30,993 nt of DNA. Source: a virus. The stretch lies in the IMG/VR virus record IMGVR_UViG_3300001525_000032; one strand, written 5' to 3'. This document shows positions 2,788 to 30,993 of this stretch, piece after piece. Each line of letters starts with the position of its first letter. The stretch's first letter is position 1. The notes under the pieces are model-generated. The model was given only the letters and a program-made list of their open reading frames with translations, ran no database searches and was not told the DNA's origin. The translations under genes and the position numbers were made by a program.

Positions 2788-3014
2788 AGCACGAGCACTC
2801 AGCACCGGCGGGATACCGCCCGCGCTTTGCCGGGACGATGAAATTATACCTCGTCCGTCACAAGGAATACGGCGAGCTCACCGTAAACGGCGTGAACAAA
2901 TACGAGGCCGTACACGCCGCCGCCCGCAAGTGGGGCGTTCGGTGGACGGCAATCGCCCGGGAGTGCGAGTATATCGTGCTCGCCGAGGATACGCCGGAGG
3001 GCGGCAGACCATGA
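2784..3014 (+). CDS. Hypothetical protein
   Basis: ATGA overlap with the upstream gene. An alternative start lies at 2839. Confidence 0.5.
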   Translation: MKHEHSAPAGYRPRFAGTMKLYLVRHKEYGELTVNGVNKYEAVHAAARKWGVRWTAIARECEYIVLAEDTPEGGRP

Positions 3015-3652
3015 CGAGACAGGAGCGGCGGAAACGTCGCAGACAGCGCCGCCGCCGGATGCAAGCCGGTATCCTCCTCTCGCTCGTCCTCGTGCTGGGG
3101 CTCATTATTGCGCTCCGGGCGGGCAAGGAAAGGGGGACGCTCGAGCCGGAAATCCCGCTCGCGGAGGAACGGCAAAAGCTGACGTACATAGCACCGGCTC
3201 CGGCCTTGCCGGATACGGCGGCGGAGGAAACGCCGGAGGAGCCCGAGGAGCCGCCGGTAGAGCTGGAGCCCGAGAACAGATACGCGGAGTTCCATTTCAG
3301 CGACGAGGACGTTTATATCCTCGCTTGCCTCGTCTACCACGAGGCGCGCGGAGAGAGCTTCGAGGGACAAGTCGCCGTCGTCGAGGTCGTTCTAAACCGT
3401 ATGCTCTCCGACTATTTCCCGGATACGGTCGAGGAGGTCGTATTTCAGAAATACGGCGACGTATGGCAATTCTCCCCCGCTCCGTACCTCTACTCGGCGG
3501 AGCCGGACAAGGAGCAATATCTCGCGGTGCATACCGCCATAGAGGAGCGGGAGCACATTCTTTCGGAGGATACGGTCTATTTTTCGACCGCGCCCTATAA
3601 CGAGAGCGTCGATATGATTATCGGCAATCACTATTTCTGTAAAATCTTTTGA
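3011..3652 (+). CDS. Cell wall hydrolase, SleB/Hydrolase_2-like, with an N-terminal membrane anchor
   Basis: Arg-rich N-terminus followed by the TM segment 'ILLSLVLVLGLIIAL'. 'LACLVYHEARGESFEGQVAVVEVVLNRM' is the characteristic SleB-type motif. Confidence 0.7.
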   Translation: MTRQERRKRRRQRRRRMQAGILLSLVLVLGLIIALRAGKERGTLEPEIPLAEERQKLTYIAPAPALPDTAAEETPEEPEEPPVELEPENRYAEFHFSDEDVYILACLVYHEARGESFEGQVAVVEVVLNRMLSDYFPDTVEEVVFQKYGDVWQFSPAPYLYSAEPDKEQYLAVHTAIEEREHILSEDTVYFSTAPYNESVDMIIGNHYFCKIF

Positions 3653-3667
3653 ATGGAGGAAAAGACG

Positions 3668-4303
3668 ATGCAACTCATTACCACAAGGAACAAGGAAATC
3701 TCTTTCGCAGAGCTCAAAAAGGCCATTTCGAGCGGGAACGGCCTCGAGCTTATCCGCCCGCGCGACAAGTTCGCTATCGAGCTCAAAAACGGCGAGCTCG
3801 TCAATGCCGTTTGCGGCGGCTACGTCAACGAGAAGCGCGCCCGCTTCGTCCTCGAGGACTGCCTCGCGGAAAAGTGGCGCATGAACGACACGCCGACCAA
3901 CAAGGGCGGATACCTCAAGAGCGAGGGACGGCGACACGTCCTCGAGGATATTCTCCCGCTTTTCCCGGACGAGCTCGCGGAGGCGTTCGTACCTCGCTTT
4001 TTGTCCGAGGAAATCGACGGCGAGCGCCACGAGTACGCCGATACCCTATGGATACCCTCCGCGACCGACGTTTTCGGCGCGGGGAATTGGTGGAACGAGG
4101 AGCCGGACAGCTTTCAACTTGAGATTTTCAAGCGCGAGCGCGACCGCGTGAAAGAGCACGTCGGAGACGGAACGTGGTTTTGGTGGCTCCGTTCCCCGCG
4201 TGCGAGCACCTCCTACTTTTTCGTGATTGTGTACACCGACGGCACAGTCAGCTACGCCAACGCGGGCATTTCGCTCGGCTTCGCGCCCGGCTTTGACCTG
4301 TAA
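3668..4303 (+). CDS. DGR target protein 2: stand-alone ligand-binding domain carrying VR2 at its C-terminus
   Basis: GGAGG at 3655-3659 favours the ATG at 3668, with an in-frame alternative at 3653. The C-terminus 'WWLRSPRASTSYFFVIVYTDGTVSYANAGISLGFAPGF' matches the TR-encoded peptide and the C-terminus of 22069-23322. Confidence 0.85.
   Translation: MQLITTRNKEISFAELKKAISSGNGLELIRPRDKFAIELKNGELVNAVCGGYVNEKRARFVLEDCLAEKWRMNDTPTNKGGYLKSEGRRHVLEDILPLFPDELAEAFVPRFLSEEIDGERHEYADTLWIPSATDVFGAGNWWNEEPDSFQLEIFKRERDRVKEHVGDGTWFWWLRSPRASTSYFFVIVYTDGTVSYANAGISLGFAPGFDL
4178..4294 (+). repeat. DGR variable repeat 2 (VR2)
   Basis: 117-nt hand alignment to TR 23840-23956. There are 18 differences, all at TR adenines, and none at the 85 non-A positions. 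Confidence 0.9.
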
Positions 4304-4319
4304 AATTCGGAATTAAAAA

Positions 4320-4344
4320 GCTCCCCGGCTCAATGCCGGGGAGC
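4320..4344 (+). promoter_or_regulatory. Hairpin downstream of VR2 (10-bp stem, loop TCAAT); candidate DGR homing cruciform
   Basis: GCTCCCCGGC-tcaat-GCCGGGGAGC. It starts 30 nt after the GC-rich 'ctcggcttcgcgcccgg' element and has no T-tract. Confidence 0.7.
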
Positions 4345-4364
4345 AAGCCACAAGGAGGCCGAAA

Positions 4365-4604
4365 GTGGTTAGACGCAGAAAATCAAACCTCCCGAAATGG
4401 CGGTACGAGTTCGATTGCCGGAAATGCGACAACATTCGAGAGGTACACGACCCGCGCAAAGGCAGAGACGGCGATTACTGCATCCCGTGTATAGAGCGCA
4501 TGGACAGCCGCCGCCCGAGCCCGATACACGCAGACGAAAAAGAGCGCGTCCTCCGTTGCGAGTGCTTTACGCCTATCCCGGAGGACGAGGAGGGCGAAAA
4601 ATGA
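4365..4604 (+). CDS. Hypothetical zinc-ribbon-like protein
   Basis: GTG start 6 nt after GGAGG at 4354-4358. Contains 'CRKC...CIPC...C'. Confidence 0.55.
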   Translation: MVRRRKSNLPKWRYEFDCRKCDNIREVHDPRKGRDGDYCIPCIERMDSRRPSPIHADEKERVLRCECFTPIPEDEEGEK

Positions 4605-4834
4605 AACGCAAAAAGAAAAGCCGCCTCGCGGCGGCGGAACTCCTCGCCGTGCTTATCGTGACGGCGGTCGTTTTCATCAAGAGCAGAGGCTACGCGCTCG
4701 CGTGGCGCGGATACGAGGCCGTCGGCGGCGAGTTCATGCTCTTGCTCCTACCTATTATATATTACGAGGCAAAGCGAATTATCCTCGACTATGTGGCGGA
4801 CTTCGTAGCACTTTACCGCCGCTCGGAGGACTGA
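4601..4834 (+). CDS. Small membrane protein
   Basis: ATG at 4601 overlaps the upstream stop. 'MKRKKKSRLAAAELLAVLIVTAVVFI' and a second hydrophobic segment 'FMLLLLPIIYY'. Confidence 0.55.
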   Translation: MKRKKKSRLAAAELLAVLIVTAVVFIKSRGYALAWRGYEAVGGEFMLLLLPIIYYEAKRIILDYVADFVALYRRSED

Positions 4835-5050
4835 AAATGCAGGACAGAAAAAGAGAAACCGCCGACGCTTTGCAGAACGTCGGCGGGGACTCGTCCCGGA
4901 AAAGACGAGCGATTACTCATACCTTTATTATTATAGCACTCTCCGGGACGGTATGCAAGGACAAAAAATCGAGCGCCAAGCGCGTTTTTACGGGCTCGTA
5001 TGGAATATTAACAAACCGACCATAGACGAGCTCTCGTCGGAGGGTATCAC

Positions 5051-5815
5051 ATGAGAACAGTTTACCGAGAGAAACGCTATTATTGCGGCGAGTATCTCGA
5101 CGTATATATCTACCCGACCTATACACAGGCTCGGAGCAGAGGCAAGCGGAGCAAGCCGACCTCCGCCGCTCAAAAGAAACTCAACCAGCGGCACAGAGAG
5201 GAGAAGCTCGTCCGCCTCCTCCATGCGAACTTTACGCCGGACGACCTCGAAATCCATTTGACCTATCAGCACCAGCCGGAAAGCCCGGAGGAGGCGCAAC
5301 GCCTTTTACGGAATTATATCCGCCGGGTGCAGAGAGCGCGGAAAAAGCAAGGGCTCCCGCCGCTCAAGTACATAGCCGTTACGGAAAAGGGCTCCAAGAA
5401 TGGGCGCTATCATCATCACGTCACGCTATCCGGCGGAATGGATAGAGACGAGCTCGAAAACCTTTGGGGGCTCGGCTATGCCAACTCCCGCCGCTTGCAG
5501 TTCACAGAGAGCGGCCTCGCCGGGCTCGGTCATTACATCGTCAAGAGCCCGCTTTACTCTCGGGCATGGAACGCCTCGAAAAATCTTATCGACCCGGAGC
5601 CGAAAACACGGGACGGGCGTATCTCCGGCAGACGTGCCGAGGAGCTCGCCCGGGACACGACCAACAACGCCGAGTATGAAAAGCTCTATCCGGGCTATTT
5701 CCTCGCGGATGCTGGCGCATGGCACAACGACGTAAACGGAGGAAAGTATATCGTCGCCCGCTTTTATCGGCGGGACGGTGTATTTATAAAACCGAAACGG
5801 AGGAAACGAAAATGA
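5051..5815 (+). CDS. HUH-superfamily rolling-circle replication initiator (Rep)
   Basis: Motif I-like 'EIHLTY', HUH motif 'GRYHHHVTL' and catalytic Tyr motif 'GHYIVKS', in canonical order. Confidence 0.65.
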   Translation: MRTVYREKRYYCGEYLDVYIYPTYTQARSRGKRSKPTSAAQKKLNQRHREEKLVRLLHANFTPDDLEIHLTYQHQPESPEEAQRLLRNYIRRVQRARKKQGLPPLKYIAVTEKGSKNGRYHHHVTLSGGMDRDELENLWGLGYANSRRLQFTESGLAGLGHYIVKSPLYSRAWNASKNLIDPEPKTRDGRISGRRAEELARDTTNNAEYEKLYPGYFLADAGAWHNDVNGGKYIVARFYRRDGVFIKPKRRKRK

Positions 5816-6224: not shown

Positions 6225-6668
6225 ATGATTAACTATTTCGAGGCGGCGGAGAAAACTCTCCGCGCTCGCGGCTTGCTCGAGACGGCTTTAGGCAATCTCG
6301 AGCGGAAAAAGGAGCGCATTTTACGATACGGCGCGCCGTCGGAGTATCCGTCGGCGGATATGTCCAAGCCGTACACGGGCGCGAAATCTGTAAACGACGC
6401 GCTCGCGGACTGCCTCGAGCTCGCCGAGGCCATGCGGGAAATCCAGATTACCCGGGATAAGGTCGAGGAGATAGACGGCGTTCTCGCGCAGATGGACGAG
6501 GACGACGCTCGTATCCTCCGGCTTTGGTACATCGAGCGCAAGAGCAAGGAGGAAATCGCCGAGGCCGTATGCTATGCCTCGCCTACGTCCATATACGACC
6601 AGCGCAACAAAGCTCTTGTGCGCTTCGCTCTCCTCTACTTCGGCGCGGGGGCTATGCCGTCTATGTGA
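6225..6668 (+). CDS. ArpU/RinA-like late transcriptional regulator (sigma-70 region-4-type HTH)
   Basis: About 147 aa. The C-terminal 'ILRLWYIERKSKEEIAEAVCYASPTSIYDQRNKALVRFA' resembles sigma region 4. The gene sits just upstream of the packaging module. Confidence 0.55.
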   Translation: MINYFEAAEKTLRARGLLETALGNLERKKERILRYGAPSEYPSADMSKPYTGAKSVNDALADCLELAEAMREIQITRDKVEEIDGVLAQMDEDDARILRLWYIERKSKEEIAEAVCYASPTSIYDQRNKALVRFALLYFGAGAMPSM

Positions 6669-6834
6669 GGCGCTTTCTCGCTTATTCTCATGTATTGAAA
6701 AAAAGGTGTATGGAAACTTGCATTTTCCCCGTGCTATCATTGAGGCGTAAAGAGAGGTCGAGGGAAACCTCGCCGCCGTGCGCCCCGCGCTTTATGCGCG
6801 AGGCGTTCTCTTTATCCACTCGGAGGCGGAGAGT

Positions 6835-23832: not shown

Positions 23833-23958
23833 CGCCGCTAATTGGTGGCTCCGTTCCCCGAATGCGAGCAACTCCAACAATTTCGTGAATGTGAACACCG
23901 ACGGCACAGTCAACAACAACAACGCGAACAATTCGCTCGGCTTCGCGCCCGGATTTTA
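23833..23958 (+). repeat. DGR template repeat (TR), non-coding
   Basis: Contains 13 AAY codon equivalents (would read 'NWWLRSPNASNSNNFVNVNTDGTVNNNNANNSLGFAPGF'). There is no start codon or RBS. It is the adenine-rich master copy of VR1 and VR2. Confidence 0.9.
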
Positions 23959-24192: not shown

Positions 24193-25311
24193 ATGAACAG
24201 CGCAGAACGACGCGAGGCACGGTATCAGCGTCGCAAGGCCGCGAGAATGAAAAAGAAAGCCGCCTCGCTCCGGGAACACGGAGATTTCGAGACGGTTTTC
24301 TCGTTCGAGCGGCTCTATGAGAGCTACCGCGCCTCCGTCCGTGGCGTTGGGTGGAAAGCGAGCACACAGCGATACAAAGCCGCCTCGCTCGCCAACGTCA
24401 CAAAGACACACGAGGAATTGATAGCCGGGAGATACCGCTCCAAGGGCTTTTACGAGTTCGATATTGTGGAGCGGGGAAAGCCGAGGCACATTCGGAGCGT
24501 CCATATCTCCGAGCGCGTCGTACAACGGTGCTTGTGCGATTACTGCCTTGTGCCGATGCTCTCCCGGTCGTTCATATACGACAACGGAGCGAGCTTGCGC
24601 GGCAAAGGATACGATTTCGCCGTATCCCGGGTGACGCGCTTTCTCGCGGAGCATTACAGGAAACACGGGCGGGAGGGCTACGTCCTCGTATTCGATTTTT
24701 CAAAGTATTTTGATACCGCCCGGCATGAGCCGGTATTTCGGGAGCTCGAGCGGAGCGGCATAGACGACCGCCTCGTTTCGCTCTCGAAATATTTTATTCA
24801 GAACTTCGGCGACGTGGGGCTCGGCCTCGGGAGCCAAGTCTCGCAAATCGCCGCGCTCGCCTTGCCGAACAGGATAGACCACTATATCAAGGACACGCTC
24901 GGCATGAAGCACTACGCCCGCTATATGGACGACGGGTGCATAATCAGCGAGTCAAAGGCAAAGCTCGAGCTCTGCCTCCGGGAACTCCGGCGGCTCTGCG
25001 ACGAGCTCGGTATCCGCCTCAATCCGAAAAAGACGCAGATTATCAAGCTCACGCGCGGCTTTACGTTCGTCAAGGTGCGCTTTCGCTATGGCGTAAACGG
25101 GAAAGTCGTCCGCCGGGCGACCTATAAGGGTATCCGGCACATGAGGGAGAAACTACGGATTTTCCGGCGCTGGGTGGACTCCGGCAGAATGACGGCGGCG
25201 GACGTGGAAACGTCCCTCGTCTCGTGGCGGGGACACATGAGGCGATTTCATTCGTACCACATGGCGCAGACCGTAGAGCGGCGCTATCGAGAATTATTCA
25301 AGGGAGGATAA
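24193..25311 (+). CDS. DGR reverse transcriptase
   Basis: RT motifs 'VLVFDFSKYFDT', the DGR-type motif 4 'LGSQVSQ' ([LIV]GxxxSQ), the catalytic 'YMDDG', then 'LNPKKTQI'. Confidence 0.9.
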   Translation: MNSAERREARYQRRKAARMKKKAASLREHGDFETVFSFERLYESYRASVRGVGWKASTQRYKAASLANVTKTHEELIAGRYRSKGFYEFDIVERGKPRHIRSVHISERVVQRCLCDYCLVPMLSRSFIYDNGASLRGKGYDFAVSRVTRFLAEHYRKHGREGYVLVFDFSKYFDTARHEPVFRELERSGIDDRLVSLSKYFIQNFGDVGLGLGSQVSQIAALALPNRIDHYIKDTLGMKHYARYMDDGCIISESKAKLELCLRELRRLCDELGIRLNPKKTQIIKLTRGFTFVKVRFRYGVNGKVVRRATYKGIRHMREKLRIFRRWVDSGRMTAADVETSLVSWRGHMRRFHSYHMAQTVERRYRELFKGG

Positions 25312-27502: not shown

Positions 27503-28264
27503 GTGACGGAGCAACAGGTACGCGAGCTCGTCGTCTCGACGGCGAGGGCGTGGCTCGGGAAGAACGAGCGGGACGGCTCTCACCGGGAAATCATCGACCT
27601 TTACAACGCACACAAGCCGCTCGCCCGGGGATACGCCGTCAAGTACACGGACGCATGGTGCGCGACGTTCGTCTCCGCCGTCGCTATCAAATGCGGCCTC
27701 TCGGACATTATGCCGCTCGAGTGCGGGTGCGAGGCTATGATTTCCCTCTATCGCTCTCATGCGGTGAGCCGCTGGGAGGAGGACGAGAGTATCACGCCAC
27801 AGCCCGGCGACGTGGTTTTCTATGACTGGCAGGACAACGGCTCCGGCGACGACCGGGGAGCCGCCGACCATGTGGGCATTGTGTCCAGCGTGAGCGGGCG
27901 CGCCCTCAAGGTCATTGAGGGCAATTTCTCGAACAGCGTCAAGGAGCGGACGCTCGAGATAAACGGAAAGTATCTCCGGGGCTTCGGCCTCCCGGCGTAC
28001 TACACCAAAACGGACAACAAGGAGGATTTCGACATGGATATTAACGAGGCAAGAAAGCAACTGACCTCTTGCGCCGATACCGGCGACACGCCCTCCGCAT
28101 GGGCGAAAGAGGCGGCGGAATACTGCAAGCGCAAGGGCATTTTCAACGGTGACGGAGCCGGTAATTTCGGCTGGCAACAGCCGATTACCCGCGAGGCCGT
28201 CGCTTGCATCATCTACCGCGCACTCGAGGCGGCGGGCGCTCTCGGCAATCTTTCCGACGTATAA
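27503..28264 (+). CDS. Endolysin: CHAP (NlpC/P60-like) catalytic domain plus a C-terminal SLH-like cell-wall-binding domain
   Basis: GTG start after AAGGAGGG. Catalytic Cys context 'YTDAWCATFVS' and His context 'ADHVGIV'. The C-terminus 'WAKEAAEYCKRKGIFNGDGAGNFGWQQPITREAVACIIYRAL' looks like an SLH domain. Confidence 0.75.
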   Translation: MTEQQVRELVVSTARAWLGKNERDGSHREIIDLYNAHKPLARGYAVKYTDAWCATFVSAVAIKCGLSDIMPLECGCEAMISLYRSHAVSRWEEDESITPQPGDVVFYDWQDNGSGDDRGAADHVGIVSSVSGRALKVIEGNFSNSVKERTLEINGKYLRGFGLPAYYTKTDNKEDFDMDINEARKQLTSCADTGDTPSAWAKEAAEYCKRKGIFNGDGAGNFGWQQPITREAVACIIYRALEAAGALGNLSDV

Positions 28265-29892: not shown

Positions 29893-30942
29893 ATGGGAGA
29901 GCGGACATATAAACAACTTAATTGGACGAGCCGTATCAAGCTCGAGACGATGCTCAAGCATGGACACTCGAAAAAGGAAATCGCCGAGGAGCTCGGCGTA
30001 CATATCAGCACCGTTTACCGTGAGCTCAAGCGCGGGACGTATGAGCATCTAAACTCCGATTATACGACCGAGGAACGGTATAGCCCGGAAAAGGCCGAGG
30101 CGCGCTATCAAGAGGGGCTCGCCGCGAAAGGTGCTCCGCTCAAGATTGGGAAAAATCACGCCGCCGCGCAGTTTATCGAGGACAAAATCGGAAACGAGGA
30201 CTATTCCCCGGCGGCGGTGTGCGCTCTACTCAAGCAGGAAAAATATAAACACTTCGGAATAACCTTTTGCCGTGCGACGATTTATAAATACGTCGAGGAC
30301 GGCGTTTTTCTCACGCTCACAAATCAAGACCTCCCGGAAAAGGGCGACCGCAAAAAGAAGCATAGAACAATCCGCAAGAAACAGGCTCGGGCATCCAGCG
30401 GCACGAGCATAGAGCAGAGGCCGGAGTATATCAACGAGCGGCAGGAGCCGGGACATTGGGAAATGGATACCGTCGTCGGGAAGAAGCGGACGAAAGCCCG
30501 CCTCCTCGTCCTCTCCGAACGTGTCACGCGGCGGGAAATCATTATCCGCATCAAGGACGGACGCGCCGAGACGGTCGTCGCGGCATTAGACCGCCTCGAG
30601 CGCCTTTATGGTGCGGCGTTCTATCGGATATTCAAAACGATAACCGTAGACAACGGCTCCGAGTTCGCGGATGCTGACGGCATCGAGCGGAGCGCCCGGC
30701 GCAAGGACTCAAAGCGGACGACGGTCTATTACTGCCATGCGTATAGCTCTTGTGAGCGCGGCACGAATGAGAATATTAACCGCATGATACGGCGGCAGTT
30801 CCCGAAAGGGACGGACTTCGACAAGGTAACGGCGGCGGAAGTGAAGCGCGTCGAGACGTGGCTCAACAACTACCCGCGAGAAATACTCGGCTTTATGTCC
30901 TCGGCGCAAGCGTTCGAGCTCGCTTTTGACCGCGCCGCATGA
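29893..30942 (+). CDS. IS30-family DDE transposase/integrase, full length
   Basis: N-terminal HTH 'EIAEELGVHISTVYRELKRG'. DDE region 'HWEMDTV', 'TVDNGSEF' and 'CERGTNENINRMIRRQFPKG'. Confidence 0.85.
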   Translation: MGERTYKQLNWTSRIKLETMLKHGHSKKEIAEELGVHISTVYRELKRGTYEHLNSDYTTEERYSPEKAEARYQEGLAAKGAPLKIGKNHAAAQFIEDKIGNEDYSPAAVCALLKQEKYKHFGITFCRATIYKYVEDGVFLTLTNQDLPEKGDRKKKHRTIRKKQARASSGTSIEQRPEYINERQEPGHWEMDTVVGKKRTKARLLVLSERVTRREIIIRIKDGRAETVVAALDRLERLYGAAFYRIFKTITVDNGSEFADADGIERSARRKDSKRTTVYYCHAYSSCERGTNENINRMIRRQFPKGTDFDKVTAAEVKRVETWLNNYPREILGFMSSAQAFELAFDRAA

Positions 30943-30993
30943 GCCCTCAAAAAATTATTCTATCTTTTTCGCACAATTTACTTGACATTTGCG
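30919..30993. repeat. Terminal direct repeat, identical to 1-75
   Basis: See feature 1-75. Confidence 0.9.

Follow-up and report, generated by a model that had tools for sequence, protein, structure and literature searches.

A remote gene for a single-domain DUF6273 protein is a probable second target of a phage diversity-generating retroelement

Why would a phage direct a diversity-generating retroelement (DGR) at a small gene that lies many kilobases from the retroelement cassette and outside the tail genes? Phage DGRs are usually explained as a means of tropism switching through tail proteins, and the purpose of distal targets has been raised as a question in several papers. We address it with the viral record IMGVR_UViG_3300001525_000032 of IMG/VR, whose entire 30,993 nucleotides (the window) were analyzed. 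The genome, that of a gut phage, is complete: it has 30,918 bp and, in addition, a terminal repeat of 75 nt (positions 1-75 recur exactly at 30919-30993), which points to a genome either circularly assembled or terminally redundant. It holds one DGR cassette with a template repeat (TR) and a reverse transcriptase (RT), and two genes containing variable repeats (VRs): target 1, beside the cassette, contains VR1, and target 2, in the early part of the genome, contains VR2 (Table 1). With a probability of roughly 85%, the target 2 gene is a genuine and currently active second target of this single DGR, and its product is a soluble protein made of a single, presumably C-type-lectin-like DUF6273 domain.

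The alignment of VR2 to TR is ungapped over 117 nt and has 18 mismatches, each of which (18/18) falls at a TR adenine. The aligned TR stretch has 32 adenines, and none of its 85 non-A positions has changed (hypergeometric p 7e-13 for this confinement to adenines). VR1 differs from TR at 14 sites, again exclusively adenines (14/14). Both VRs are mutated at 10 sites and carry the same base at just 3 of them, indicating that VR1 and VR2 diversified independently. Both are in frame 0, and TR contains 13 AAY codons. A scan of both strands of the whole window detected no TR-like copy beyond TR, VR1, and VR2. The preliminary description of this DNA had read the same 117-nt match and 18 adenine-confined differences, a second and remote target of one TR, and separate diversification of the two VRs, and on all of these it is confirmed. 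Its distance of about 19 kb from the cassette applies to the linear or prophage map, on which VR2 and TR are 19.7 kb apart, but not to the circular map, where the path the other way round is 11.3 kb. A chance or relic-repeat origin of the VR2 match was rejected, given these mismatch statistics together with the population data that follow.

An invariant VR2 had been named as evidence that would speak against this target, and the populations show the opposite, since VR2 is hypervariable in them: its DNA alleles are unique in 40 of 40 related contigs from IMG/VR and metagenome-assembled genomes, and 101 full-length homologues of the protein hold 99 VR alleles. The IMG/VR fragment L005 shares 98.6% identity with the window; 18 VR2 positions differ between the two, all of them TR adenines, as do 13 positions in the other 510 nt of the target 2 gene. 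A 31.5-kb relative (ERZ808278 NODE_379) has an identical TR, while its VR1 is different and its VR2 is a third allele; TR is identical in the related contigs L007 and L008. The minor-allele fraction in VR2 is 0.43 at TR-adenine columns versus 0.03 at non-A columns.

The direction of transfer can be read from non-adenine changes in TR. Three TR types were sampled, namely those of the window, of L033, L039, and L046, and of L064, and TR and VR2 stand on the same contig only in the window, L033, L039, and L064. Within L039 and L064, TR and VR2 differ by 0 non-A and 15 to 20 A mismatches. Altogether, 21 of the 40 VR2 alleles have no non-A mismatch to a sampled TR type, with the proviso that for the other 17 of those 21 the TR type was picked as the best match, which favors low non-A counts. 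VR2 mirrors the non-adenine changes of TR, as is seen directly on contigs with both repeats and, elsewhere, through the best-matching TR type. At the level of sequence comparison, it is shown here that information flows from TR to VR2 in natural populations. Three contigs (L046, L052, and L033) were excluded from the conclusions for flank switches or a deletion mosaic. The target 2 body changes at the VR to a VR1-type or TR-type downstream flank in the short metagenomic contigs L046 (~2275-2406) and L052 (~3728-3797), and L033 is a mosaic with large internal deletions. Assembly across the 117-nt repeat probably produced these joins as chimeras; the alternative is real recombination between VR and TR.

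The protein family shows the same partition into a constrained body and a diversified end. At 90% identity, 823 protein clusters match target 2, and some of them comprise thousands of members. TR-Asn codons have an entropy of 2.62 bits versus 0.13 outside the VR, and the ratio of nonsynonymous to synonymous substitution rates (dN/dS) is 0.05 to 0.14 in the scaffold, reflecting purifying selection, and above 1 in the VR. The variable sites are rich in Tyr, Ser, Asn, Gly, and Arg, contain 0.1% Pro overall, and have site-specific preferences (R at 178, I at 198).

How a site so far from the cassette could be reached is suggested by the sequences downstream of the VRs. Both VR flanks contain the core motif AATTCGGAA (the VR1 copy lies at 23321-23329) followed by a hairpin with a TCAAT loop, and the 3' flank of TR has neither the hairpin nor the motif. 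The element after VR2 is unchanged in relatives whose target 2 protein is just 57 to 63% identical, and every close relative keeps the hairpin, which in L023 has one compensatory base-pair change. Dulem virus 34, Acutalibacter phage Fontainebleau, and Roseburia phage Shimadzu also have hairpins after both VRs and none after TR. A terminator reading of the VR2 hairpin was rejected, as no T-run follows it on the + strand and it scores as a terminator solely on the minus strand, which has no genes there. In the Bordetella phage BPP-1, targets are recognized by the initiation of mutagenic homology (IMH) together with a hairpin, a pattern that the cis elements here match. We regard the AATTCGGAA motif and the TCAAT hairpin as candidate DGR target-recognition elements with a presumed role in homing, and because both VRs share them, the remote site would be targetable in trans. 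TR position 114 (window position 23953), the last TR adenine, is part of GGA in TR, whereas all VR1 and VR2 repeats examined from four phage lineages (the window, L003, L004, and L012) read GGC there. By analogy with IMH versus IMH*, this fixed difference at the 3' boundary may be a directionality mark.

In the mechanism that we propose, RT would copy the TR RNA, probably together with the Avd-like protein, and would misincorporate opposite adenines; the cDNA would then replace VR2 in trans, guided by the repeat's 3' end, which is GC-rich and has no A, and by the AATTCGGAA motif and TCAAT-loop hairpin. The steps of RNA copying, misincorporation, and cDNA transfer are modeled on the known DGR mechanism. 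The RT contains the motifs LGLGSQVSQ and YMDD, and TR is placed 236 nt upstream of its gene. The Avd-like open reading frame (ORF) has a weak match to phrog_3206, 'Avd protein of DGR' (E 8e-4), and none in Pfam or NCBIfam; its size and its place between target 1 and TR fit Avd.

The product of the target 2 gene matches Pfam DUF6273 (PF19789) over residues 70-199 (E 4e-11; 43.5 bits against a cut-off of 23.5) and has no meaningful match in NCBIfam or PADLOC. AlphaFold2, supplied with a 46-sequence family alignment, predicts one compact domain (predicted local distance difference test, pLDDT, 95.9; predicted template modeling score, pTM, 0.91), and in this model the variable residues are placed on C-terminal beta-hairpins. 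The best fold match in PDB is 9qa6, the DUF6273 N-terminal domain of the T. ramosa immunoglobulin A (IgA) peptidase (E 1.8e-4, TMq 0.64; PMC12402451). The C-terminal domain of Legionella Lcl comes next, C-type lectins match weakly, and Mtd is absent among the fold matches. A profile search of PDB sequences returned a marginal match to 9qa6 alone, and the viral structure matches are DUF6273 proteins, including small ones and tail-fiber/receptor-binding-like ones. Target 1 also matches DUF6273 (E 1.3e-14) as well as phrog_37900, and hhalign places target 2 residues 12-211 on target 1 residues 165-417 with a probability of 99.6%. Target 2 therefore corresponds to the target 1 binding domain without the N-terminal 164 residues, in agreement with its first description as a free-standing copy of the C-terminal domain of target 1.

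No signal peptide or membrane helix was found in target 2 (maximum Kyte-Doolittle score 0.97), and neither its predicted structure nor the alignment with target 1 reveals a virion-attachment or adaptor domain. It differs from Mtd-like tail-fiber proteins in being a single domain, in having no N-terminal attachment or trimerization part, and in being encoded 11-20 kb from the cassette. It also differs from tentaclins, in which an N-terminal C-lectin domain is followed by Ig-like domains (PMC10743442), in that it has no Ig domain and carries its VR at the C-terminus, with a total length of 211 aa.

The same arrangement occurs in other phages. A distant-mode blastn search of 2900-5100 against a phage collection gave nothing, and relatives were reached by protein-level searches only. 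An exhaustive search of representatives yielded dozens of 50%-identity clusters of 200-240-aa proteins, aligned over query residues ~6-210, and the family links to Dulem virus 34 (40% identity), Fontainebleau, and Shimadzu. Four other complete genomes (these three and MT835491) contain both an RT and a family member, and in all four the cassette TR matches two VRs, a VR1 in the tail module and, 14-25 kb off, the VR2 of the small protein. Neighbors of the small gene in other genomes are methyltransferase/Rep, PolA/helicase, or methyltransferase/Erf. It lies just upstream of Rep in IMG/VR contigs at 51-66% identity and next to PolA in metagenome contig L013. MT835625 and MT835607, partial contigs without RT, are uninformative for layout, as is MT835477, whose TR/VR pair does not match its own family member within the first 50 kb. 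Judged by their sequences, the small proteins (~200-240 aa) are one stand-alone family with a recurring position in the replication/counter-defense module, in siphoviruses and myoviruses alike.

In the window, target 2 belongs to a same-strand block with the order BrxP/DndC-like gene, SleB-like hydrolase, target 2, zinc-ribbon ORF, Rep initiator, MazG-like gene, and ArpU-like regulator, after which come HNH and terminase genes. The ArpU-like gene marks the end of the early/replication block that holds target 2, and the placement originally given for the gene, between a membrane-anchored SleB-like hydrolase and a zinc-ribbon ORF and not among the tail genes, stands. This gene order suggests early or middle expression of target 2. 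Promoter matches are strongest at 64-92, and a candidate late promoter is found after the ArpU-like regulator, at 6711-6740. Upstream of target 2, and kept there in relatives, is a gene of the 3'-phosphoadenosine 5'-phosphosulfate (PAPS) reductase family (1024-1929) that resembles BrxP and DndC, suggesting a role in DNA modification or counter-defense.

Table 1 Features of the window that bear on the two DGR targets and their surroundings.
Feature	Position	Strand	Details
SleB-like cell-wall hydrolase, membrane-anchored	3011..3652	+	Hydrolase_2 E 2.5e-15; spore_SleB E 3.9e-16
Target 2 gene	3668..4303	+	211-aa ORF; GGAGG ribosome-binding site 3655-3659
VR2	4178..4294	+	encodes residues 171-209 of target 2
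Post-VR2 motif TAAAATTCGGAATT	4301..4314	+	stop codon included
GC-rich hairpin after VR2	4320..4344	+	10-bp stem, TCAAT loop; DNA fold -14.9 kcal/mol, z = -4.3
Zinc-ribbon ORF	4365-4604		79 aa, CxxC...CxxC; directly downstream of target 2; no family match
Small ORF	~4600-4834		two predicted hydrophobic helices; downstream of zinc-ribbon ORF; no family match
ArpU-like late-gene regulator	6225..6668	+	phrog_36, phrog_248; TIGR01637 phage_arpU E 9e-6, below cut-off
Target 1 gene	22069..23322	+	417-aa tail-module protein: 164-aa N-terminal region, then DUF6273 domain
VR1	23197-23313	+	from TR alignment; homology reaching 23190-23314
Hairpin after VR1	23339..23357	+	7-bp stem, identical TCAAT loop; -16.1 kcal/mol, z = -4.3
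Avd-like accessory gene	23380..23802	+	probable ATG 23380 inside ORF 23338-23802; 140-154 aa
TR	23833..23957	+	part in common with VR2, 23840-23956
DGR reverse transcriptase	24193..25311	+	RVT_1 E 1.1e-18; phrog_1423 E 2.7e-80
True endolysin	27503-28264		separate from SleB-like hydrolase
IS30-family DDE transposase	29893-30942		right end; 231 bits vs cut-off 80

The SleB-like hydrolase has an N-terminal membrane helix (residues 44-62 of the long ORF), and its Pro/Glu-rich linker (3055-3300) carries an indel relative to L005. It adjoins the target 2 homolog in sublineages of 57-94% identity. More generally, a peptidoglycan hydrolase in Hydrolase_2 or SLT form is often, although not universally, found near the small DGR target (L022, L023, L024, and L069-L089; L003 at 32828-33745; L012 at 30548-31264). 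An SLT-domain protein is encoded ~4-5 kb upstream in other relatives and Dulem virus 34, and orf40 of Shimadzu is weakly Hydrolase_2-like. A functional link between target 2 and the hydrolase was considered and not adopted, as the hydrolase is absent in L009 (85% identity) and Fontainebleau.

At the other end of the genome, target 1 comes after the tail genes, including Prophage_tail and tail-fiber-like ORFs. Several of these genes contain repeats: three tandem 123-nt units (82-84% identical; 21415-21795) in the tail-fiber-like gene directly upstream of target 1 (21092-22066), tandem 132-nt units in the tape-measure gene (16695-17078), and four 24-nt units in the Prophage_tail protein gene (20429-20548), which encode a Gly/Ser/Thr-rich linker. 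No tyrosine or serine integrase was found in the subset of ORFs scanned. Relatives occur as prophages, with flanks that are Firmicutes-like in look, and an IS30-family transposase at the prophage edge in L010 suggests transposase-mediated integration.

For the role of the diversified protein, we lean, by a little, toward target 2 being a free, non-tail variable ligand binder that is expressed with the early/replication genes and could act either within the infected cell or once lysis has released it. That it is a fixed part of the tail is improbable. The non-tail, soluble character is deduced from gene position, domain content, and absent targeting signals. Several considerations weigh against this view. 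The evidence for early expression consists of promoter consensus matches and sub-threshold regulator matches. Some phage virion proteins have genes outside the structural module, and most of the annotated phage DUF6273 structural matches are tail-fiber or receptor-binding-type proteins. In addition, the Avd assignment in the cassette is weak.

Such considerations bring up the alternative that target 2 is a virion component, an accessory receptor binder or decoration encoded away from the structural genes and docking non-covalently on the tail or capsid. DUF6273 is found at the C-terminus of tail-fiber/receptor-binding-like and Hoc-like phage proteins, the VR sequence space of target 2 is common to the tail protein target 1, and small DUF6273-only DGR targets beside tail genes have been read as Mtd-like (PMC10743442). 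Even so, a single globular domain without an adaptor region is poorly suited to this, and the replication-module position is kept in phages with unrelated tails (sipho and myo). Moreover, every Shimadzu isolate has a different VR2 allele and none is dominant in one virome, unlike VR1 (bioRxiv 10.1101/575076). We consider a virion role unlikely, though by no means negligible.

Rather improbable in our judgment is that target 2 is an intracellular, early, hypervariable counter-defense binder that binds or masks variable host defense proteins or other factors. The protein has no export signal, its gene is upstream of the late regulator, and its neighbors include the BrxP/DndC-like gene of the PAPS-reductase family, with DNA methyltransferases beside it in relatives; the same inference has been published for the distal VRs of Quimbyvirus (PMC8008677) and of gut prophages (PMC12629997). 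However, all of this is guilt by association, target 2 has no PADLOC or NCBIfam match, and a specific inhibitor would not predict the weak allele selection of Shimadzu. More doubtful still is the proposal that stand-alone DUF6273 proteins are early, cytoplasmic, antibody-like binders, diversified by DGRs, that neutralize variable host defense or intracellular factors; as a variant, it is possible that they work jointly with the frequently neighboring peptidoglycan hydrolases. If this cytoplasmic-binder proposal were true, phages would have an adaptive counter-immunity arm separate from receptor recognition.

It is very improbable that VR2 is a passenger, a duplicated DUF6273 domain that kept its recognition elements and is mutagenized as a by-product with little adaptive value, for although the authors of the Shimadzu study read its VR2 as under weaker selection than VR1 (bioRxiv 10.1101/575076) and the VR1 and VR2 alleles of one genome are unrelated, the scaffold is under strong purifying selection, the cis elements are better conserved than the coding sequence, at least 5 divergent lineages have kept the arrangement, and residue use at the variable sites is site-specific and non-uniform.

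A conserved and massively diversified protein that is under purifying selection, is encoded among replication and DNA-modification genes, and shows no features of virion attachment or export does not fit the tropism-switch explanation of phage DGRs. The lineage looks abundant, with hundreds of 90%-identity clusters, and provides a very large natural allele set, and the cultured relatives Shimadzu and Fontainebleau make the function of target 2 testable. The present analysis adds to earlier work one family with a recurring position, cis elements that are VR-specific and shared by both targets, and the mirroring of non-adenine TR changes in VR2.

In BPP-1, transfer from TR to VR is adenine-specific, and the VR codes for the C-terminal face of a fold of the C-lectin type; the repeat is GC-rich at its 3' end, and a GC hairpin is present downstream of VR and not of TR. 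Adenine-only transfer, a C-terminal VR, a GC-rich repeat end, and a hairpin at the VR only are all found in the window. Mtd is a 381-aa trimeric tail-fiber tip protein with N-terminal attachment domains, encoded beside TR, whereas target 2 consists of one 211-aa domain and has its gene 11-20 kb away from the cassette.

The resemblance to Shimadzu extends to layout. Its orf43 encodes a homologous 209-aa DUF6273 protein with a VR at the 3' end, ~14 kb from TR, and lies within the replication module, flanked by a DNA methyltransferase and Erf; the other VR is in a tail protein beside Avd-TR-RT, and a GC hairpin follows both VRs. VR2 of orf43 diversified in vitro and in mice, with read-level variation (bioRxiv 10.1101/575076; LR596903). 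Unlike the window, Shimadzu is a myovirus with different replication genes, and in the window, unlike in Shimadzu, target 2 adjoins a membrane-anchored SleB-like hydrolase. The similarity runs through intermediates (tblastn 2e-15 with family member P0159 and 2e-8 with the Fontainebleau homolog); with the window target 2 protein itself, Shimadzu was not found at E 1e-5.

Other parallels are by description or concept. In Faecalibacterium phages, Toutatisvirus has a DUF6273 core gene with a VR 17,480 nt from TR (bioRxiv 10.1101/2024.10.15.618418), and Lelie and CP11 have a large and a small DUF6273 target (PMC11792537). By their published description there are, as in the window, two DUF6273 targets per TR, and the second VR, ~17.5 kb from TR in a core gene of no assigned function, varies across related genomes; the cassette-proximal target, unlike that of the window, is a Hoc-like or tentaclin protein downstream of RT. 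ORF84 of Quimbyvirus is a distal C-lectin target that is probably non-structural and lies amid methyltransferase genes (PMC8008677), and distal VRs close to counter-defense genes are present in four species of gut prophage (PMC12629997). These resemble the window in concept, with one structural and one distal, apparently non-structural C-lectin target, but the phages concerned are those of Bacteroidota, and in Quimbyvirus the target is encoded on the opposite strand. Small DUF6273-only targets have been modeled as C-lectin domains (PMC10743442), and a DUF6273 protein of Mushu is reported to be present in the secretome during lysogeny (bioRxiv 10.64898/2026.05.08.723808). The preliminary description therefore overstated how unusual a diversified protein apparently outside the virion is, given that Shimadzu orf43, Quimbyvirus, Toutatisvirus, Lelie/CP11, and the gut prophages had already been published. 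Distal, apparently non-structural DGR targets are already known in phages, and the present locus is a new and very well-populated case of them.

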